From IMG/VR virus record IMGVR_UViG_2541047926_000006: 28,819 nucleotides of DNA; one strand, 5' to 3'. The notes below the pieces were generated by a model. It was not told the DNA's origin, ran no database searches, and worked only from the letters and a program-made list of their open reading frames with translations. Each line of letters starts with the position of its first letter. The first letter of the stretch is position 1. Position numbers and translations under genes: made by a program. The stretch is from a virus. Its lineage: Duplodnaviria > Heunggongvirae > Uroviricota > Caudoviricetes. Below, piece after piece: positions 3,306-28,819 of the stretch.

Positions 3306-3881
3306 CTACGGCAGTGCTGGCCATTCAATATCCTGTGCAGTTGACGTATCAACACGGTTCAGCAACACCCGATACTTTTTCCAGGCTTCCAGCAATGAGG
3401 TTTCTTCCTCCGTTGCGATTTCCAGATCTACAGCATCCTGAAGTGGCGCAATATGCTCACTGGCTACCTGCATCAGGCTGTTTTTTGTTTCTTCCGCCTC
3501 TCGGATCCGGAACAGTTTTTCTGCTTCTGCATCTTTCACCCAGGCTGTGCCGTTCCACTTCTGAAACTCCCCTTCCGGCGATAACCAGGTAACATTTTCC
3601 GGTAACGGACCGAGTTCAGAAATAAATAACGCGTCCCCTGACGCTACGTCATAAACCGTTTTACCCCGATGGTCTTCAACGAGATGCCACGATGCCTTAT
3701 CACTGTTGAAAACAGCCACAAAGCCAGCAGGAATATCTGGTGGTGCAATATCGGTACTGTTTGCTGGCAGACCTGTATGAGGCGGAATATATGCGTCACC
3801 TTCACCAATAAATTCATTAGTTCCGGCCAGCAGATTATAAATTTTTATGGTCCGTGGTTGTTCACTCATTCTGAATGCCAT
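3306..3881 (-). CDS. tfaQ: Tail fibre assembly protein
   Basis: 191-aa ORF immediately downstream of the tail-fibre ORF with a 1-nt stop/start overlap (TAATG). Sequence recognised as Tfa family. Confidence 0.85.
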
Positions 3882-5062
3882 TATGCAAGCCTCACAATAT
3901 AGTTAAATGCGATGTTTTTGACGGTGTTTTCCGCGTTACCAGCAGCGTTAACGGTGATGGTGTGTCCATGTGAACCAATCGCAACGGAGTGCGTATGAGC
4001 ACCAATACCGACAGTATGCGCGTGTGCACCTGCAGATGCTGCTGTGCCGGACAGTGAATGGCTATGATTACCATCTGTACTGGTATTCGCTAACCACCCC
4101 GTAGACATACCTACTGAGCCTTGTACACCCCAGGTATTTTGACCTGAGCTTGTATAACCATATTGATAAGTATCTTTAAAAACACTGGGGTTAAATCGAC
4201 GGCCATCTCTATGGCTGTGATTACCAGCTGCATTCGTGCTGCCACTTAAACTATGGGTATGCGCACCAGTGTTATTCGTGGATTTAGTGCCGTAATCAAA
4301 CGACGATGTGGTTTTCGTCCCCAAATCCGTACTGGATGCGCTGGCGCTGTGGGTATGCGATTTAATGCCGTCCTGTTCCTGAGACAATACGGCCCGACCA
4401 CTGGCAGGTTTGCCCTTAATCGTCCAGCCACGCATATCAGGGATCACGCCTGACGGATAAGCCGCTGCAAGTTTCGGGTATGCAGATTTGTCAAAAGCCT
4501 GCCCCTGCATCAGGGCATAGCCAGACGGAACGGTATCTGATGGCCACGGGATTGGTGCGCCAGGCGGATAAAACTGCTCTGATGGCGTATAGAGTGAATA
4601 AACTGTACCGTCCGTTAACCCTTCCGGCTTATTAGCAGAATATGCTGGTGACGTATGAATCGTCACGCTGGCATTACTGGTATAATCCCATTGAATATTT
4701 ACACCAGTCGCATAATTTCCGATTGCAACGTAAATATCGTAAGTATCACCAGATGTATTAACCCAGGCAAAATTTGTAAACCCTGTCAATGTGCGCTGCC
4801 ATAAAGCACCAGTAATCCCCTTCGGATTACCATTACCTGCACGTAAAACAAGTTCAGATATACCTGCCTGTTGAGGTGACCCCACGTTAAATCCAGCGCC
4901 ACCAATCAACGTAATTGAAACAACAGAACTCGCCTGTGGCATGGTTACCGTTGCTAATTTGAACCAACCAGCACCACCGCTGAATGACATTGTTGTTGAG
5001 TTAAGCGTACCAATATCTTTCGGCGTCAGTGTTATATCCGCTGAAAGCGCCTTACCATTCAC
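3881..5062 (-). CDS. stfQ: Side tail fibre protein, C-terminal (receptor-binding) part, with His-x-His repeats
   Basis: 393-aa ORF with repeated GAHTHS / GNHSHS / GSHGHT motifs typical of T-even and lambdoid fibre tips. In a different frame from the N-terminal Stf fragment upstream. Confidence 0.75.
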
Positions 5063-5310
5063 CTTACGGGCAGAAGGTATACGGTGATAATCCCGGCGTG
5101 TGACGGCGGGAATCCCTCCACCAACAGACTGACGCTGTACTGACCATACTCGACGTCCATTGTGTAACGCCCGGCTTCATCCGGGTTTTCTGAGGCCAGC
5201 GTGTTCACCACCACCGCGGTGCTGTTACGTTTTGCTTTCAGCTGGATTGTGCAGTTCTGTACCGGTTTTCCTGTGCCGTCTTTCAGTACACCTGAAATCT
5301 TTACTGCCAT
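5059..5310 (-). pseudogene. stfQ: Side tail fibre protein, N-terminal fragment, not in frame with the distal part
   Basis: ORF 5059..5316 translates as MNMAVKISGVLKDGTGKPVQNCTIQLKAKRNS..., matching the lambda Stf N-terminus as I recall it, then stops after about 85 aa. Its stop overlaps the ATG of the 393-aa ORF (ATGA). Confidence 0.6.
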
Positions 5311-5320
5311 ATTCACCCCA

Positions 5321-5374: not shown

Positions 5375-5974
5375 TCAGAACTTATAACCGACACCCACGA
5401 TGAAACCGTCAGTGCGCCAGTCACCGCTGCCGGAGCCTTCATAAGCGACATCAACGGCCACGGATTCGGTCGGGTTAAACTGCACGCCAGCCCCCCACGC
5501 CAGAGACGTGTTGCTGTGGCGACCGTCATCACTTCCGGTCAGCACATCGTGCGTTTTCCCCGTATTGTCGGTCACCTGCAGATAATTCCCGGAGAAAGTC
5601 GACACACGGCTGTAAGCCACACCCGCCATCGCATACGCGCTGAACCATTCATTCACGCGCACAGACGGCCCCGCCATCACGCTGAACCAGCGGTTACGCA
5701 CGGAATCTTCATACCAGCGGGTATCGCTGTAATGCGTTTTTTGCTCATCTTCAGCGTTGGCATAACTGAATGACGTAATCAGCCCCAGCGTGTCCGTAAA
5801 CTCATAACGGTATTTCACGTTAATCCCGTTCAGATTATCGCTGCCGGGAGCGTTCGTACGGGCATGAAGATACCCTGCGCTCAGTGTGGCCTGCTGCTCA
5901 GACGCCCATGCAGGCGCACCGGATACGGCCAGACAGATGGCTGCGGACAAAATGGCTGCACAAACTTTACGCAT
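5375..5974 (-). CDS. lom: Lom/Ail-family outer-membrane beta-barrel protein
   Basis: 199 aa with signal peptide [24 protein letters not shown], alternating beta-strand pattern and C-terminal GYKF. Sits between J and stf as in lambda. GAGAGG Shine-Dalgarno upstream. Confidence 0.85.
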
Positions 5975-5995: not shown

Positions 5996-6021
5996 AATAA
6001 AAAAGCGCCATTTCTGGCGCC
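5996..6021 (-). terminator. Rho-independent terminator downstream of the Nu1'-'J ORF
   Basis: Minus-strand stem GCGCCA / TGGCGC with loop, followed by TTTTTTATT. Confidence 0.55.
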
Positions 6022-6040
6022 CGTATATGGGTTATAAAAT

Positions 6041-7450
6041 TCAGCTGATACTGATGCCTGCGGTGGCTTTCTTCATCACCACAACCAGCAAATCGCTGAT
6101 ACTTGCTGTGGGATACCAGTCATTTACCAGCCATGCTGACACCGAAAACTCCAGCGTCATGTGGCCGTGACCAGCTGGCATATCAATAACACCACTGTAA
6201 ATCAGCGTATTATCCAGCGCGGTACGGTTATAAATTTCAGCACCATTTTTCTTCACTATCAGGCGGCATGACGAATAAATATCGTTATTCTCCCGCTCAT
6301 GTTTAGCGCCGCAGAATGCCACCGCTGGAATAACAATTTGCCTGTCAAAAGGCTGATCGTCATAAATCCTGACGGTAATGGTCCCTGATGGCCACCGCTC
6401 CGGTGCCCGGGAGTCCTGCGGGAAAGCCTTACCCACTGTTTTGACAATATCGCCTTCAATCTGATTGGCTGACAGTTTCCCCTTAATCTGACAGTTCTCA
6501 TTAATCGTGACGTTGTTGAGCGTCCCGGAGTTCGCATTCACACTGCCACTGATATCCGCATTTTTAGCAGTCAGCTTTCCGTCCGGTGTCAGGGAAAATG
6601 CCGGTGGATTTCCACCGCTGGTAATGGTGGGGGCCGTCAGATACTTCAGGAACACGTCGTTCATGAATATCTGATCGCCCTGACCAACAAACATCGGTTT
6701 TGTGTTGCCATTCGCAGGATTAACCATCGCAATCCTGTCCGCCGCCAGCAGCACCTGACTCTGCATGCCGTCAGGGGTGTTCTCAATACCGGCACCAATA
6801 CCCGCGATATAAAGGCGTCCGTCCTGCATCTGCTGCAGCTTCACAGCCCACATGCTGTTCAGGTTATTATTTGTATCAACCTGAACCTTCTGTATCTGCT
6901 GAATTGCCGCACTCTGGTCTTCCAGTTTCTTATTGACGGTCTGCGTGATTTCATTGCTGACATCCGTAATGGACGTCCTGATTTCAGCCAGGTCAGGCGC
7001 AAGCTGACCGTTATCAATCTGCGTCCACAGCTCCTGAGCCAGATGGGTTTTCCCTATCCCGTCGAGAATACTGGCAATTTCACCTGCGATCCGCGACAGC
7101 ACGAAAGTACAGAATGCGGTTTCCACCACTTCAGCGGAGTCTCTGGCATTCTTCAGTTCCTGTGCGTCGGCCTGCGCACGCGTAAGTCGATGGCGTTCGT
7201 ACTCAATAGTCCCTGGCTGGAGATCTGCCTCGCTGGCCTGCCGCAGTTCTTCAACCTCCCGGCGCAGCTTTTCGTTCTCAATTTCAGCATCCCTTTCGGC
7301 ATACCATTTTATAACGGCGGCAGAGTCATAAAGCACCTCATTACCCTTGCCACCGCCTCGCAGAACGGGCATTCCCTGTTCCTGCCAGTTCTGAATGGTA
7401 CGGATACTCGCACCGAAAATGTCAGCCAGCTGCTTTTTGTTGACTTCCAT
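6041..7450 (-). CDS. nohA: Chimeric ORF: terminase small subunit Nu1 N-terminus fused in frame to a tail-tip protein J C-terminal region
   Basis: First ~130 aa ([78 protein letters not shown]...) match lambda Nu1 as I recall it. The remainder (…[30 protein letters not shown]…[14 protein letters not shown]…) resembles the lambda J C-terminal domain. One continuous 469-aa frame. Confidence 0.85.
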
Positions 7451-7459
7451 TGTTCATTC

Positions 7460-7660
7460 CACGGCCAAAAACAGAGAAAGGAAACGACAGAGGCCAAAAA
7501 GCTCGCTTTCAGCACCTGTCGTTTCCTTTCTTTTCAGGGGGTATTTTAAATAAAAACATTAAGTTACGACGAAGAAGAACGGAAACGCCTTAAACCGGAA
7601 AATTTTCATAAATAGCGAAAACCCGCGAGGTCGCCGCCCCGTAACCTGTCGGATCACCGG
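7460..7660 (-). other. Lambda-type cos site: cosN 12-nt cohesive-end sequence at 7628..7639, cosB (Nu1-binding repeats) between cosN and Nu1, cosQ side at 7640..7660
   Basis: The minus strand reads ...CCGACAGGTTACG GGGCGGCGACCT CGCGGGTTTTCGCTATTTATGAAAATTTTCCGGTTTAAGGCGTTTCCG..., which I recognise as the joined lambda right and left ends. Inverted GGAAACGACAG repeats near 7480 and 7526. Confidence 0.85.
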
Positions 7661-7838: not shown

Positions 7839-8033
7839 ATGTCAACGAAGAACAGAACCCGCAGAACAACAACCCGCAACATCCGCTTTCCTAACCAAAT
7901 GATTGAACAAATTAACATCGCTCTTGATCAAAAAGGGTCCGGGAATTTCTCAGCCTGGGTCATTGAAGCCTGCCGCCGGAGACTAACGTCAGAAAAGAGA
8001 GCATATACATCAATCCAGAGTGATGATGGATGA
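7839..8033 (+). CDS. ynfO: Small basic protein YnfO, possible ribbon-helix-helix fold
   Basis: 64-aa ORF MSTKNRTRRTTTRNIRFPNQMIEQINIALDQKGSGNFSAWVIEACRRRL.... The flanking DNA matches what I recall as the lambda right end. Confidence 0.7.
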   Translation: MSTKNRTRRTTTRNIRFPNQMIEQINIALDQKGSGNFSAWVIEACRRRLTSEKRAYTSIQSDDG

Positions 8034-8283
8034 ACATCCCGGTTTCTTTACCTTCCCTCCCTCCCCGCACAGAACTGGCGAGCGTGAGGGACCAATATGT
8101 GAGCCATAAATGCCTTATCTTCAGAAATGCAGTTGGTATCCGAACAGGACGATATTGTAAATTCACCTAAATACGAGGCATTGCTGTAGTTGAATTGCAG
8201 TACTGTATTAGCCTGACAGTGACAGAATACGATATTGACTCTGTCACTTGTGAAATGGTCAGAATGGTTAGCAGTTATGGTGA

Positions 8284-8490
8284 TCAGTCAACCAACAGGG
8301 AATAATCCTTCGTATTCTTATCGTGCTTTACTAACGCGGCCTCAATTGCCCTGAATGCTTCCAGAGATACTTGATGTTCTATACATGCAATTACAACATC
8401 CGGGTAACCCATCGAAATGGTGCTATTAAGCATAGTTTTTACACGAACCTGCTCCTGGGAGGGGGCATCAATGTATTGATCTTTATGCAT
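8284..8490 (-). CDS. ydfO: Hypothetical small protein at the position of ydfO
   Basis: 68-aa ORF with GGAG about 9 nt upstream of the ATG and an in-frame stop 8 codons further upstream. Symbol assigned only by position between ynfO and gnsB; not confirmed by sequence. Confidence 0.45.
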
Positions 8491-8785
8491 TTTGTCGCTC
8501 CATTCGTTTGCTCTTCACTTGCGGCTAAAAATATAACGTCAAATCACTCAGCATGAAAGAGTGAAAGTTTCAGCGCGTTTCCCTTACATAATCTGTCGTT
8601 TGTATTCTCTTCAGGCATACCGGAAAGACTAGGTATTGTCACACAACCAATACCATCGACAATCGAGATTTATATCTATTCGGTAATGTTTAAATATAAC
8701 AAAACCCCGTAAAAACGAGGTTTATGGGTAATTTGTATTGTTGAATAGCATCTGATGAGAAATTGATGCTAATACTATAAACATG

Positions 8786-9428: not shown

Positions 9429-9633
9429 TCATTTTCACTTTCTTAAATCTAACGACAGATGGCTAACATTTAAGTATTGTGAAATATTATCAAATGTAAT
9501 CATCATTGATTTACAAAAGATACATTTTGCCCCGAAAGGATTTCTGTCAGAAACATCAAAAGATGATGTTCTATACTGAGAACCATGGCAACACGGGCAT
9601 CTAAAGTGAATATGGTTTGTAATATTTTCTACC

Positions 9634-9846
9634 TCAAAGTGCCACTACATGAACAGCTGCAGGGCCTTTAGGTCCGTTCTCAATACCAAATTCGACTTCC
9701 TGATTCTCAGTTAACGTTTTGAAATCGTTGCTCTGAATAGCTGAGAAATGCACAAACACATCTTTGCTACCATCTTTCGGCGTGATGAAACCAAAACCTT
9801 TTTCAGGGTTAAACCATTTCACTAAACCAGTCATTTTGTTAGACAT
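9634..9846 (-). CDS. cspI: Cold-shock protein CspI (CspA family)
   Basis: 70 aa, [38 protein letters not shown]..., with RNP1/RNP2 motifs. AAGG Shine-Dalgarno. Confidence 0.9.
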
Positions 9847-10209
9847 CATTATTACCTTTTGAAGAAGTTAGCCCTTGGGCAGAATGGTCCGAAAAAAAAT
9901 ATCAGAGAGAAAAACCAACAAGGAAATCTCAAGAGGTACAAAGAATAAAATTATAACAATGACTGCTTCAGATAATTTTGTAACAAACCAGAACACCATT
10001 AACGCATGATTAACCAACCATAGCAAGGATTACTTTTGTAAAGAAAAACACACGAATGAAACAATAGCTTTATTTATTAATAAAACGTGTCATTCTGTCT
10101 AATGACCTTTTATCTTACCCTTAAGATTTCAAGGATTTTGACTCATGGAAGAGTCCTTTTTATTTAAATTTCACATTCAGCGCTAAAAATAATCCGATTT
10201 AATATTAAT

Positions 10210-12803: not shown

Positions 12804-13083
12804 AGATTGTGGTGCTTTTTGTGGGAGTCATCCACTTACGCACTTTGTTTTGCCATGCCAGCAGTTAGCTTCTGCTGTAAAACTATTCATGCAGCAAACC
12901 TGCACTTCACCACAATGGTTAGCATACTTTTCCTGATTAAGATTTTGCCAAATATGCTAGCCATTGTTTCATGTATTGGACCTCCTTACTTTTTATTAAA
13001 GAGATCCAATATTCACTACTCTGTCCGTATCTCTACTCAGGCATCAGCCTTCTTCGTTATCGTATACAGACGAGCGATGAATT

Positions 13084-13299
13084 TTAATCAGTAATGATGA
13101 CATTTGCTGCTGCAGGACCTTTAGCACCACTCTCTATAGAGAAGGTAACCTTTTGACCTTCAAATAAGGTTCGATAATTATCATTCTGAATCGCAGAAAA
13201 ATGCACAAACACATCTTTACTACCATCAACAGGAGAAATAAAGCCGAAACCTTTATCAGCGTTAAACCATTTTACTAAACCAGTCATTTTATTTGACAT
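13084..13299 (-). CDS. cspB: Cold-shock protein CspB (CspA family)
   Basis: 71 aa, [71 protein letters not shown]. Confidence 0.92.
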
Positions 13300-13599
13300 T
13301 CTACATTCCTTAACTTGAGCCTTTCGGCATAAATGGTTTGCATAACAGAAACGACTTCGTACTTAATTGGAGAGACTCAAAGAAGGAATAAGTGAATAAC
13401 ACCTGAAATGAGAACTGCTTTAGTAAACTACTTCGTATATCGTCTGTTCTTCAAACCGACGCAATCATTAACGCATAGTTGAACATATGAAGCAATGTTT
13501 ATTTTAGACATCCAGCCATCTTCAACCCCATCAAAAAACTATAGCTTTCTTCAGGAACGTGTGTATAGTGCGCCAAGTTATCAGTATTAAGGAATTTTT

Positions 13600-14233: not shown

Positions 14234-14740
14234 TTATCTCGTCACCTTCCTCAATTGCGCTTCCGCGTATGCTTCTTCCTGCCAGCACTTTGTTACCAGT
14301 TTACCAATGACGTCCGCATACCCCTTATACCACTGATAATCGGTCAGGTCTGGTACCAGCTTCTGGACATGACGTCGTGCCAGCGTGGTCGGTAAACGAC
14401 TAAACCGGTTTCCATTACAACGCCCACAAATCTTATATACCGGTACGCCATGAAACCGGGTTCTTTTTTCATCCAGAACAATCCCTTTACCCTTACACCC
14501 TCTGCACGCTGTGCTGGCTTCGCCCTTACCATGGCAATGCTGACATAGTTCCTTCACCCATTCTTCCTTGATTACAGATTCCCCGCGTCTGTAGTGTTTC
14601 ACCACTTCGCGCAATACATTATAAAATCCCGTACCTGAACAATGCTCACAGCGAGCCTTACTTGCCGCAGACCTGGAGTAATCAGCAAAGGCAAAACTCA
14701 CGAGGTAAGGAATAATCTGTAACCGGATTTCTTCACTCAA
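14234..14740 (-). CDS. quuQ: Q-like late antiterminator, distal part, with four DnaJ-type CxxCxGxG zinc-finger repeats
   Basis: 168-aa ORF whose only in-frame start is TTG at 14738-14740. Motifs CEHCSGTG, CQHCHGKG, CRGCKGKG, CGRCNGNR. Lies upstream of the lysis cassette as a Q gene should. Confidence 0.7.
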   Translation of the reverse strand: MSEEIRLQIIPYLVSFAFADYSRSAASKARCEHCSGTGFYNVLREVVKHYRRGESVIKEEWVKELCQHCHGKGEASTACRGCKGKGIVLDEKRTRFHGVPVYKICGRCNGNRFSRLPTTLARRHVQKLVPDLTDYQWYKGYADVIGKLVTKCWQEEAYAEAQLRKVTR

Positions 14741-14985
14741 TTGTTCAATGTCGGGTTATCCAGTGCCATCGCGTAATTTAGCAGGCCTTCAATCGCAAAC
14801 TGAGGGTCCTGAACACCAACTTTTGCCAGAAATAAGGCCAACCCAAGTGGTGCTTTCGACTGCACCATCCCCTGCGCTGCCATTACATCCGTAATTGTTA
14901 AACAACCGGTGCCTGTCGCTGGAGCGTCATCGCTCAATTTTGGAGATTTTGGGGAGTAATATTTTGGTAAGGCTTCAAGGTTCAT
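14737..14985 (-). CDS. quuQ: Q-like antiterminator, proximal part (82 aa), 1 nt out of frame with the distal part
   Basis: ATG at 14985 with GGAG 7 nt upstream (MNLEALPKYY...). Its stop (14737-14739) overlaps the TTG of the next ORF. The 752-nt span plus one base would give a single 250-aa frame. Confidence 0.55.
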   Translation of the reverse strand: MNLEALPKYYSPKSPKLSDDAPATGTGCLTITDVMAAQGMVQSKAPLGLALFLAKVGVQDPQFAIEGLLNYAMALDNPTLNN

Positions 14986-14998
14986 GCTCGTTCTCCAC

Positions 14999-16048
14999 TT
15001 ACGCCAGTACGCCAATTGCCAGCGCGCGATCGATAAAACGAAATATCAGCTCCAGTTGGGAGCCATACTTATCTTCAAATGCCACTGTATCCGTATGCAG
15101 CTCGTTGTGATGCTTTCTGCACAAAGGCAACACAAAGAGATCATGTGCTTTTGTTCCCATTCCGCCCTGCCCGTGACCAATCAGATGATGCGGATCGTCG
15201 GCTGGCATACCGCAGCAAGCACACGGCTGTGTCTTAACCCAACGTGTGTATTTCTCCTTAACCCAGCGGCGACGTTTAGGCAGCTTCATGAAAGATTCCG
15301 GAGACTCTGGATCAACGGTGATGCTTACCACCGTCTTTTCCTGTGGTGATTTTTGTTGCTGGTGGGCGTAAGGCAACGGTGCAAGATTTTTTGTGCGTTG
15401 TTTCAATATGCTGGTGGCGGTCTGCTCTCCCGGTACGATGTCGCTTTCGCGGTACACCGAGCAGATTTTTTCCGCTGGTAATCCCAGCGAACGACGCGAT
15501 ACAGCCTCAGGTAGTGCATCCACCACCTGATTGCAGACCGCCCACCAGGATAATTCAGCCAAAGATAATTCCCGCTCCTGCGTACCGCTTATTGCGTGAC
15601 GGATGACGTCAATCACCCATGCTGTCAGATTTTGTTGAGCAAGCAGCTCCAGTGATTCCGATGTCTGGTCACGCAGTTGGTTGTCGCAGTGCCAGCACAA
15701 CACCATTGCGCCGGTACCATAACGGTGAATGACTGTTTCAGTGTGATGGTAATCGCCATTAGGCCGCTGGCAGGATGTAACATGACGTAATAGCCAGTCG
15801 GACAATGCGCCAACGCCGCCAGCAGCACGAATCACCCGTTCGTTACTAAAAAACGGCAGCAATGTTTTGTCTTCCGCCAGCGGCTGGCGAACGGCAGGAA
15901 CGACTCCGGATGGCAGATTACGCATGCTTTTTGGTTCCGGTTCCACCAGCACTCGAGGATTATGAAATATCTGTATGGATTCACGGCCCGGCTTAAGGAC
16001 CACCAGCCCAAGCTCAGGCACCAGAACAGGTCTAAGTAATACCCGCAC
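14999..16048 (-). CDS. ydfU: DUF968-type protein with a C-terminal Cys/His-rich putative HNH-like motif
   Basis: Start chosen at GTG 16046-16048, directly preceded by GGAGG, giving 349 aa. C-terminal CACCGMPADDPHHLIGHG...CRKHHNELH. The maximal ORF extends to 16087. Confidence 0.8.
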   Translation of the reverse strand: MRVLLRPVLVPELGLVVLKPGRESIQIFHNPRVLVEPEPKSMRNLPSGVVPAVRQPLAEDKTLLPFFSNERVIRAAGGVGALSDWLLRHVTSCQRPNGDYHHTETVIHRYGTGAMVLCWHCDNQLRDQTSESLELLAQQNLTAWVIDVIRHAISGTQERELSLAELSWWAVCNQVVDALPEAVSRRSLGLPAEKICSVYRESDIVPGEQTATSILKQRTKNLAPLPYAHQQQKSPQEKTVVSITVDPESPESFMKLPKRRRWVKEKYTRWVKTQPCACCGMPADDPHHLIGHGQGGMGTKAHDLFVLPLCRKHHNELHTDTVAFEDKYGSQLELIFRFIDRALAIGVLA

Positions 16049-24081: not shown

Positions 24082-24134
24082 TTTCTGGTGACGTTTGGCG
24101 GTATCAGTTTTACTCCGTGACTGCTCTGCCGCCC
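24082..24134 (+). ncRNA. dicF: DicF small RNA (Hfq-dependent; represses ftsZ translation)
   Basis: TTTCTGGTGACGTTTGGCGGTATCAGTTTTACTCCGTGACTGCTCTGCCGCCC followed by TTTTT, matching the DicF sequence as I recall it, including its intrinsic terminator. Confidence 0.9.
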
Positions 24135-27504: not shown

Positions 27505-27538
27505 CTAAAAGCCACACTAACTAATGAGAGAAGTTGAA

Positions 27539-28819
27539 ATGAAATATCCGACAGGCGTGGAAAACCATGGAGGGAAATTACGTATCTGGTTTGTTTATAA
27601 AGGCGTAAGAGTCAGGGAAAATCTGGGGGTTCCTGACACAGCAAAAAACAGGCGCGTTGCAGGTGAACTACGCTCCTCTGTTTGTTACGCAATAAAAACT
27701 GGTGTTTTCGACTATGCAAAACAGTTTCCCTCCTCACGCAATCTGGAAAAATTTGGTGAGGCCCGACAAGATTTAACCATAAAAGAACTGGCTGAAAAAT
27801 TTCTGGCACTGAAAGAAACTGAAGTCGCCAAAACATCACTCAACACATACCGTGCCGTCATCAAAAATATCCTGAGCATAATCGGTGAAAAAAATCTTGC
27901 CTCATCGATTAATAAAGAAAAATTACTGGAGGTTCGTAAAGAGCTACTGATTGGATACCAGATCCCCAAAAGTAACTATATTGTTACACAACCAGGGAGA
28001 TCGGCTGTAACTGTAAATAATTACATGACAAATCTTAACGCCGTGTTCCAGTTTGGTGTTGATAACGGTTACCTGGCAGATAATCCGTTTAAGGGGATCT
28101 CGCCATTAAAGGAATCAAGAACCATTCCGGATCCTCTTTCGCGGGAGGAATTTATCCGTCTTATCGATGCGTGCAGAAATCAGCAAGCAAAAAATTTATG
28201 GTGTGTTTCTGTTTATACTGGCGTTCGCCCTGGTGAGCTGTGTGCACTTGGATGGGAGGACATAGATCTGAAAAATGGAACAATGATGATCAGGAGAAAT
28301 TTAGCAAAAGACCGTTTCACGGTACCAAAAACACAGGCGGGAACCAATCGGGTCATTCATCTTATTAAGCCAGCAATCGACGCTCTCCGGAGTCAGATGA
28401 CATTAACGAGACTGAGCAAAGAGCATATCATTGATGTTCACCTCAGAGAGTATGGCAGAACAGAAAAACAAAAATGCACCTTTGTTTTTCAACCTGAAGT
28501 GTCAGCGAGAGTAAAAAATTATGGTGACCATTTTACCGTTGACTCAATAAGGCAGATGTGGGACGCAGCGATAAAACGTGCCGGACTCCGCCATCGAAAA
28601 TCATATCAGTCGAGACATACTTATGCCTGCTGGTCGCTGACAGCTGGTGCTAACCCGGCATTTATAGCAAACCAGATGGGCCATGCAGATGCGCAAATGG
28701 TATTTCAGGTATACGGAAAATGGATGTCTGAAAACAATAATGCACAGGTAGCTTTGTTAAATACACAGTTAAGCGAGTTTGCCCCAACCATTCCCCATAA
28801 CGAAGCAATGAAAAATTAA
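27539..28819 (+). CDS. intQ: Tyrosine recombinase (phage integrase)
   Basis: Start chosen at MKYPTGVENHGGKLRIWFVYKG... after a purine-rich Shine-Dalgarno. C-terminal catalytic region with R...HxxR...Y pattern (…SRHTYACWSL…VYGKWM…). TAA stop is the last three bases of the window. Confidence 0.85.
   Translation: MKYPTGVENHGGKLRIWFVYKGVRVRENLGVPDTAKNRRVAGELRSSVCYAIKTGVFDYAKQFPSSRNLEKFGEARQDLTIKELAEKFLALKETEVAKTSLNTYRAVIKNILSIIGEKNLASSINKEKLLEVRKELLIGYQIPKSNYIVTQPGRSAVTVNNYMTNLNAVFQFGVDNGYLADNPFKGISPLKESRTIPDPLSREEFIRLIDACRNQQAKNLWCVSVYTGVRPGELCALGWEDIDLKNGTMMIRRNLAKDRFTVPKTQAGTNRVIHLIKPAIDALRSQMTLTRLSKEHIIDVHLREYGRTEKQKCTFVFQPEVSARVKNYGDHFTVDSIRQMWDAAIKRAGLRHRKSYQSRHTYACWSLTAGANPAFIANQMGHADAQMVFQVYGKWMSENNNAQVALLNTQLSEFAPTIPHNEAMKN

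Follow-up and report, generated by a model that had tools for sequence, protein, structure and literature searches.

The window analysed here, a stretch of 28,819 nt, comprises a whole Qin-type cryptic prophage of E. coli at the ydfJ site. Integration was at the 5′ end of ydfJ, whose truncated copy lies at positions 1-1284, and an open integrase ORF of 431 aa lies at 27524-28819. The gene set includes pin, tfa, stf, lom, ynfO, gnsB, csp genes and lysis genes, together with ydfU, rem, hokD, relBE, dicA/C, the DicF RNA (24083-24134) and dicB. The window aligns to the Qin loci of several strains with 88-91% coverage and 97-98% identity, and over 15,450 nt it is 100% identical to NCBI scaffold KE702177.1 (GCA_000461015.1). 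Qin ranges in size from 11 to 97 kb among strains (PMC6379469), and the loci that we compared at the Qin site displayed a whole series of independent deletions.

At 6041..7450, on the (-) strand, the prophage carries a single ORF of 469 codons, from an ATG start to a TGA stop, which fuses the beginning of a Nu1-type small terminase gene to the end of a gene for the tail-tip protein J. The initial annotation had read it as about 130 residues of Nu1 running straight into C-terminal J sequence, and the Pfam, BLASTP, PDB and DNA comparisons bore this out in every particular. Residues 1-131/132 are Nu1 and the remainder is J 823-1159, in the numbering of the J protein of E. coli 14EC029, fused in frame. 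Among Pfam families, Phage_Nu1 matched aa 1-133 (E 1.3e-80, covering profile positions 1-133 of 164), Phage_Tail_Tip (PF09327) matched aa 182-310 (E 3.5e-32) and Ig_GpJ_C (PF12421), the receptor-binding domain, matched aa 339-469 (E 1.6e-37). Pairwise alignment to the lambda proteins accounted for both ends, with 131 of 132 residues identical between aa 1-132 and lambda Nu1 1-132 (residues 1-131 all identical), and 49% identity (E 8e-104) between aa 129-469 and lambda J 792-1132. Sequence matches in the PDB divide in the same way, 1j9i (aa 1-68, E 1.1e-38) and 6hn7 (aa 1-98) on the Nu1 side, and 8xcj/9wca, which are J 713-1132 constructs, over aa 132-469 on the J side. At the DNA level, lambda nt 1-583 is 99.0% identical to window 7639-7058, and the best match among phage J genes, that of phage vB_EcoS-640R1, is 94% identical to window 7061-5900, which places the junction at window positions 7056-7058. 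The expectation that the two parts are more than 15 kb apart in lambda was correct, the actual distance being ~17.3 kb (lambda 583 and about 17887).

The nohA' part (7056..7450, (-) strand) consists of the first 395 nt of the small terminase gene; it matches 14EC029 nohA at 395/395 nt and is 99% identical to lambda DNA. It retains the winged-helix DNA-binding domain (residues 1-68) and most of the middle region, and is without the last 49 codons (Nu1 residues 133-181 of 181). The 'J part (6041..7055, (-) strand) holds the last 337-338 codons and the stop of J, with 1014/1015 nt identical to 14EC029 gpJ, and a 558-nt stretch of it is 100% identical to the gpJ of six complete genomes in which this gene is intact. 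It comprises the central fibre and the C-terminal receptor-binding domain, complete to the natural J stop, while the N-terminal 822 residues, which form the tail tip hub, are absent, the match starting at codon 823 of 1159.

The chimeric protein is encoded by nine contigs, all draft or metagenomic, whose assemblies are independent of each other (3 NCBI, 4 Logan runs, ENA); over 13-15 kb, they show 0-9 SNPs relative to the window. It constitutes a one-member 90% cluster, and its database name, 'DUF1983 domain-containing protein [Escherichia coli O106]', hid the Nu1-J fusion, a description that is now corrected. A scan for the identical joint gave 0 of 5,426 complete E. coli genomes, and an exact-match scan of one genome per species found no copy of the joint. 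The allele is real, rare and lineage-restricted.

Upstream of the ORF, the cos region is intact. The 12-nt cohesive-end sequence of cosN, GGGCGGCGACCT, is present as an exact string at 7628..7639 on the (-) strand, as located by alignment to the joined lambda ends, with which the window cos shares 98% identity over 641 nt. The cosB region (7475..7587, (-) strand) contains three R elements with strings identical to those of lambda (R3 7587-7576, R2 7531-7520 and R1 7486-7475, all on the (-) strand), which we take, following established lambda knowledge, to be Nu1-binding sites. It was therefore accurate to place the Nu1 DNA-binding domain next to cosB, since cos is intact and the domain is identical to that of lambda. 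Nothing points to selection for keeping the domain beside cos, such joints being common and mostly out of frame. Downstream, a putative terminator-like hairpin with a T run, found by consensus scan at 6003..6022 on the (-) strand, directly follows the stop of the chimera and precedes lom (5375..5974, (-) strand), an intact ORF for an Ail/Lom outer-membrane protein and the next gene downstream of the joint; the Pfam family Ail_Lom is recorded for the identical lom gene in loci L006-L013.

Other parts of the prophage are damaged as well. Aligned to its 14EC029 counterpart, the side tail fibre gene stf (3881..5316, (-) strand) is split into ORFs of 85 and 393 aa by an out-of-frame deletion, 1,529 bp in length, whose joint at 5078/5079 displays the microhomology GTA. 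The late-gene antiterminator gene ydfT, a Q homologue at 14234..15015 on the (-) strand, agrees with intact 14EC029 ydfT at 752/753 nt with one gap, a 1-nt deletion (AAATT to AATT) near 14745 that puts the gene out of frame from about codon 81 onwards. The window also contains part of an ISNCY transposase. The Q frameshift, the stf deletion and the ISNCY fragment reflect a general decay of the prophage.

The availability of an undeleted prophage at the identical ydfJ site, in E. coli 14EC029 (NZ_CP024141.1), allowed us to reconstruct the origin of the fusion to the nucleotide. The genes of this prophage follow the lambda order, with nohA, A, W, B, C, D, E, FI, FII, Z, U, V and G succeeded by T, H, M, L, K, I and J, and then by lom, stf, tfa and pin. 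The window agrees with it at 640/642 nt on the left flank, from cos through nohA', and at 1014/1015 nt on the J side to the right of the joint, so that each flank is collinear with one and the same intact prophage at this locus. Between nohA nt 395 and J nt 2464, the window is without exactly 17,352 bp (3 x 5,784). In 14EC029, the nohA side reads CTCGACGGGAT followed by CCCCC and the J side reads AAAGGCGAGAT followed by AGGGAAAACC; in the window, CTCGACGGGAT runs directly into AGGGAAAACC. The three-way alignment with 14EC029 places the joint at 7056..7058 on the (-) strand, where GAT is common to nohA nt 393-395 and J nt 2461-2463, and the surrounding context, CGgGAT in nohA versus CGaGAT in J, matches at 5/6 nt, 3 of them as an exact run. 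Lambda carries GGGCTC at this place, and alignment to lambda alone for that reason had given a microhomology of just 1 nt. In the alignment to 14EC029, we saw no IS, IS remnant, filler or insertion at the joint of the window.

As the length of the deletion is divisible by three, the reading frame that begins in Nu1 continues as that of J, uninterrupted up to the J stop. The simplest account of the joint is that it would be the signature of a single illegitimate, microhomology-mediated in-frame deletion. The single in-frame deletion that the initial annotation had proposed is thus supported by the one block of 17,352 bp missing in comparison to 14EC029, by near-identical flanks and, regarding the microhomology to be sought at the junction, by the 3 nt GAT. 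Two further statements were too broad. The whole head and tail region was said to be gone, which holds for genes A through I and not for the end of J, lom, the stf remnants, tfa and pin, all of which stay. Furthermore, the deletion was taken to explain why the prophage is defective; it is sufficient alone, but there are other lesions too, in the form of the ydfT frameshift and the stf deletion.

In the scenario that we propose, a complete lambda-like prophage at the Qin site in ydfJ, very close in sequence to that of 14EC029, would have lost 17,352 bp in one illegitimate microhomology-mediated event, in which the 3′ end of a strand ending in CGGGAT within nohA was presumably joined to the sequence that follows CGAGAT within J. 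Such an event would have taken away 49 codons from the end of Nu1, all of genes A through I and 822 codons from the start of J. The remaining element is unable to make a terminase, heads or tails; its cos is intact, and lom and remnants of the tail-fibre genes are still there. The fused protein, deprived of the gpA-binding part of Nu1 and of the part of J that builds the tail tip, would most likely be neutral and is probably poorly expressed. We are confident that the ORF is a by-product of prophage decay, generated by one deletion from a 14EC029-like prophage.

Lambdoid prophages are a classic source of misassembly, as E. coli genomes hold several near-identical copies (here a median of 3 matching places per genome), and it could be asked whether the joint is an assembly artefact or a join between two different prophages. 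The same protein occurs on nine contigs from independent assemblies, which argues directly against an artefact, and the identical joint recurs in eight listed loci, one of them on a 3.58-Mb scaffold, whose assemblies and read sets are independent of one another. An overlap of 3 nt is not enough for an assembler to make a join, and the flanks are collinear with one intact prophage at the same locus. The artefact reading is thus effectively refuted already.

More serious is the possibility of two or more successive deletions, in which an older joint between nohA:394 and J:166 would have been followed by a second deletion within J, up to J:2464. The Nu1-side endpoint of the window agrees with that of the J:166 joint to within 1 nt, and the product, CGGGAT followed by AGGG, could be derived by either route; moreover, the J:166 joint is older and more widespread, being found at two chromosomal loci and in divergent alleles. 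However, the nohA' flank of the window has 2 mismatches per 642 nt with 14EC029, compared to 10-14 with strains of the J:166 type, and the left end of a second deletion would need to hit the old joint exactly. The direct route also offers the better microhomology, with 3 exact nt and 5/6 overall versus 2 exact nt. Furthermore, three additional partners (J about 2735, J:2789 and lom) are joined at this endpoint, as expected of a recurrent breakpoint, and a common endpoint therefore need not mean common descent. Sharing of the Nu1-side endpoint with at least four other joint types is as such compatible with either a recurrent breakpoint or successive deletions. Judged from the sequences compared, a single step appears the probable course of events, and we consider a nested origin rather unlikely.

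Does the open frame have any meaning? A DNA-similarity search, which finds joints regardless of their frame, revealed five other joints of the Nu1-to-J, Nu1-to-stf or A-to-J type, namely nohA:394::J:166 in strains ZYB62, 160-11H1 and MB06233, nohA:131::J:1716 in 19SZHZ713Rt, nohA:529::stf in K-12, nohD:509::J in E. coli B and A'::'J in isolate 38M23CPO015. All five are out of frame, and the open frame of the window is for this reason probably due to chance; one in six in frame is compatible with the one third that chance would give. The window differs from intact 14EC029 by three substitutions in about 1.7 kb, and the deletion is too recent for the undamaged ORF to say anything about selection, either way. 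A protein search retrieved at least six other in-frame Nu1-J fusions (P0002, P0003 and P0005-P0008), all rare and with different joints, which show repeated origin and not retention. We also considered the in-frame fraction among proteins, about 15 of 28 Nu1 fusion proteins at residue 169, as a test of selection and rejected it as biased, because short-tailed out-of-frame variants fall into the 90% cluster of intact Nu1.

Expression of the chimera is likewise doubtful. Lambda Nu1 is transcribed only within the Q-dependent late operon. In the window, Q is frameshifted and there is no promoter-like site ahead of the ORF, which together make expression questionable; the latter observation comes from a consensus scan, a weak form of evidence, in which no sigma-70-like promoter was seen on the coding strand in the 850 nt upstream. 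A superinfecting lambdoid phage could supply Q in trans. Regarding the protein itself, the C-terminal third of Nu1 that was lost (residues 133-181) includes the gpA-binding segment, the cognate large terminase gene A lies inside the missing 17,352-bp block, with no A ORF anywhere in the window, and the partner tail genes H to I fall in the deleted block as well. We infer that the fused protein has no job, as nothing suggests one.

A functional chimera might be imagined as a decoy small terminase that sits on cosB without a large subunit and interferes with packaging by incoming lambdoid phages, or as an adsorption blocker acting through its J domain. Indeed, cosB keeps its three R elements intact and lies beside an undamaged DNA-binding domain of Nu1, most of the J 713-1132 fragments of solved structure are represented in the J part, and with several independent in-frame Nu1-J fusions known, selection for them is formally possible. 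It has also been reported that adsorption of T2 is blocked by a chimeric tail-fibre protein of prophage origin (PMC12529663). Nevertheless, to the lack of a promoter-like site and the frameshifted Q must be added that the allele is rare and young, that the J part has no evident signal peptide or route of export, that joints at this nucleotide are out of frame at least as often as in frame, and that an apparent excess of in-frame joints in the protein survey is expected from the 90% clustering of short-tailed variants. We therefore regard a function of either kind as very improbable. The chimera is an ordinary, recent deletion scar of a well-known kind in a Qin-type cryptic prophage.

Looking beyond this locus, we observed that deletion joints in the lambda-type nohA/Nu1 genes of E. 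coli prophages cluster at nt 394/395 and at nt 507. At nt 394/395, which the joint of the window uses, GACGGGAT is followed by CCCCC in the intact gene, and there are at least five right-hand partners, J:166, J:2464 (the window), J about 2735 (P0006), J:2789 (P0008) and lom, the last in L032, a metagenome contig carrying a nohA::lom joint. At nt 507, 14 nt upstream of the start of gene A, GAACTGATA is followed by CCGGGG, and about 30 partners range from A to int. The sequences at the clustering sites are GGGATCC and CTGATACC. Among eleven breakpoints, 9 pairs were close together, for which a uniform model gives P about 5e-6. When viral contigs were scanned for the 25 nt that precede a site and then any base but the intact one, we counted 8 joint types at nt 507, compared to 1, 1 and 0 at nt 395, 330 and 460. 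The same pattern is visible in Nu1-like protein clusters, where 52 of the 64 variants diverging at residues 144-181 do so at 168-170. As many as 42 Nu1-like variants diverge exactly after AAALDELI, with about 28 different continuations, which are Lom, Tfa, U, FI, E, portal, Int, J or Stf fragments or out-of-frame tails.

We mapped nine nt-507 joints to the nucleotide, including three abundant out-of-frame variants that had been picked for mapping, and all proved to be simple deletions, with microhomology of 0-6 nt; in three more joints at nt 507, the sequence continues into fibre or flanking genes. No IS was seen at the nine mapped joints, and an IS-mediated deletion was rejected both for these and for the joint of the window, as there is no IS there. 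A separate deletion, in strain PCP06021, is bounded by IS3. The sequence TGCG after TA or AT starts three of the 12 right-hand partners at nt 507, plus one at nt 395. We also considered a hairpin at the breakpoint, where the joint lies in the loop of the quasi-palindrome CGACGGGATCCCCCTGTCG. This candidate was set aside, since the structure does not exceed shuffled sequences in stability (z -0.8), is formed no less well by the lambda allele and has no counterpart at the nt-507 site, which is without structure. Compared by eye, neither a pseudo-site for a Pin/Hin-type invertase nor a lambda Int core fits both hot spots, and the same is true of restriction sites (GGATCC, CCNGG), Chi-like octamers and the gyrase consensus. 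In a literature search, we found no described deletion hot spot in Nu1 or another small terminase gene.

One explanation for the clustering would be that the endpoint is not random, and that a sequence-directed break, stall or protected end at both sites starts most head-tail deletions. We put this forward tentatively, as a possibility that we lean somewhat against. If it were true, lambdoid prophages would lose their morphogenesis genes by a defined molecular route, of which the chimera would be one product, and Nu1 endpoints with such a mechanistic cause would bear on how bacteria disarm and domesticate lambdoid prophages. It would be important to carry out an unbiased survey before weight is placed on the clustering, which might be surprising to a specialist.

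By itself, the chimera matters little, beyond tracing, at single-nucleotide resolution, the loss of the virion genes from one Qin-type prophage. The retained receptor-binding end of J, lom and the fibre remnants are a type of relic that has been shown to be captured by infecting lambda, and the intact cos beside a dead terminase gene could still be cut by the terminase of a related phage. Because such relics recombine with lambda, the locus matters as a reservoir of J, lom and stf sequence with a cleavable cos, and not as a coding novelty.

Among the closest known counterparts is the nohA-stfQ region of K-12 Qin. Like the window, K-12 Qin has the truncated ydfJ site and pinQ, tfaQ, ynfO, gnsB, cspI/B/F, ydfU and rem, as well as hokD, relBE, dicA/C, DicF and dicB, and it lost its head and tail genes via a deletion that begins within nohA. 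In K-12, however, the joint leads from nohA:529 to the 3′ part of stf, out of frame, and J and lom are also gone, whereas in the window it leads from nohA:395 to J:2464, in frame, with the 3′ end of J and lom retained. The integrase gene, open in the window (431 aa), is a pseudogene in K-12.

In comparison to lambda, the chimera shares with gpNu1 the identical residues 1-131, with the winged-helix domain (PDB 1J9I, 1-68), and an intact cosB, but is without residues 133-181, and no gpA gene is present. It likewise shares with gpJ the C-terminal 338 residues, including Ig_GpJ_C and full to the stop, but is without the 822 N-terminal residues, and there are no partner tail genes in the window. 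Its J part is just 49% identical to lambda J, which represents a different receptor-binding allele, in contrast to ~99.9% DNA identity with the gpJ genes of resident E. coli prophages.

Prophage-borne interference offers a conceivable functional analogy alone. Ppi and Rpp are satellite (PICI) proteins that interfere with the packaging of another phage. The chimera might be likened to these and to StfE2, a chimera generated by PinQ in a prophage that blocks the adsorption of another phage (PMC12529663); it has neither a sequence relationship to them nor a satellite context to support the parallel.

As a source of DNA for other phages, the window can be compared to the relic at the DLP12 locus of E. 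coli B (REL606/BL21), in which a cos-adjacent Nu1 gene is likewise succeeded directly by a 3′ fragment of J (ECB_00512), with 91% DNA identity to the J part of the window. The relic differs in lying at the DLP12 site, in its complete Nu1 gene and in being out of frame, with a joint at nohD:509::J:634, a second deletion internal to J and a longer J fragment (1,809 nt). Lambda takes DNA from Qin, Rac and DLP12 by relaxed homologous recombination, which is stimulated near cos (PMC3945230). In experimental coevolution, the E. coli B relic gave lambda about 1.3 kb of J by recombination, and the fitness of the recombinant phage was doubled (bioRxiv 10.1101/2020.11.02.365361).

The Nu1-side endpoint of the chimera (the Nu1–J fusion; window 7056-7058, corresponding to nt 393-395 of the Nu1 homologue nohA) was shared with loci L005, L014, L015, L021, L023, L028 and L032. 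The other joint types ending within 1 nt of it number at least four, and their right-hand partners differ (J:166, J about 2735, J:2789 and lom), which suggests a recurrent breakpoint between GACGGGAT and CCCCC. A separate observation concerns P0010, a 211-aa Nu1 variant from E. coli with a 30-residue tandem duplication (AEVVETAF...ILDGIPLS is present twice), the end of which coincides with the 3' foot of the quasi-palindrome containing the nt-395 breakpoint.

Deletion joints cluster far more strongly between GAACTGATA and CCGGGG than they do at nt 394/395; this second site is nohA nt 507 (L017:16916 in intact prophages), 14 nt upstream of the start of gene A (loci L026, L027, L033-L045 and L049-L051; proteins P0133-P0184). 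Here, one nucleotide is joined to about 28-30 different right-hand partners, ranging from A to int. In the scan of viral contigs, each of the control positions (nt 395, 330 and 460) yielded 0-1 joints. The nine joints of this cluster mapped to the nucleotide had 0-6 nt of microhomology and no IS element. Four different right-hand partners, A:1779, C:878, stf:2408 and, from the nt-394/395 site, J:2789 (loci L033, L050, L051 and L023), open with TGCG immediately 3' of TA or AT, and this common start hints that the second side of the joints may have a sequence preference too.

The joint of nohA nt 394 to J nt 166 is present at two different places in the chromosome: near bio, in the lambda attachment region (L014, NZ_CM129883.1, between ybhB and ybhC), and at the ydfJ (Qin) site (L005 and L015). 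The joint being identical at both, we conclude that it was transferred from one prophage to another, and homologous recombination of the flanks is the presumed route.

The prophage in the window carries further damage. A single-base deletion near 14745 splits ydfT, the Q antiterminator homologue (14234-15015, minus strand), which otherwise agrees with an intact allele at 752/753 positions; the prophage's late operon therefore probably cannot be turned on by its own Q. The side tail fibre gene stf (3881-5316, minus strand) has its own out-of-frame deletion of 1,529 bp relative to the undeleted counterpart in strain 14EC029, joined at GTA (5078/5079), which leaves an N-terminal ORF of 85 aa and a C-terminal ORF of 393 aa. 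Rfam matches accepted at the gathering score were DicF sRNA (24083-24134, plus strand), two cspA-type thermoregulator leaders upstream of csp genes (9588-9993 and 13068-13460, both minus strand) and IS009 within tfa (3340-3538, minus strand).

For the ynfO–gnsB interval (8002-8651), no aligning sequence was present in the prophages of 14EC029, K-12 or 19SZHZ713Rt; the interval lacks ydfO (DUF1398), in whose place stands a 68-aa ORF (8284-8490, minus strand) with no Pfam family. The integrase ORF (27524-28819, plus strand; 431 aa, Arm-DNA-bind_2 and Phage_integrase domains) is open in this Qin variant; in K-12, by contrast, intQ is annotated as a pseudogene.
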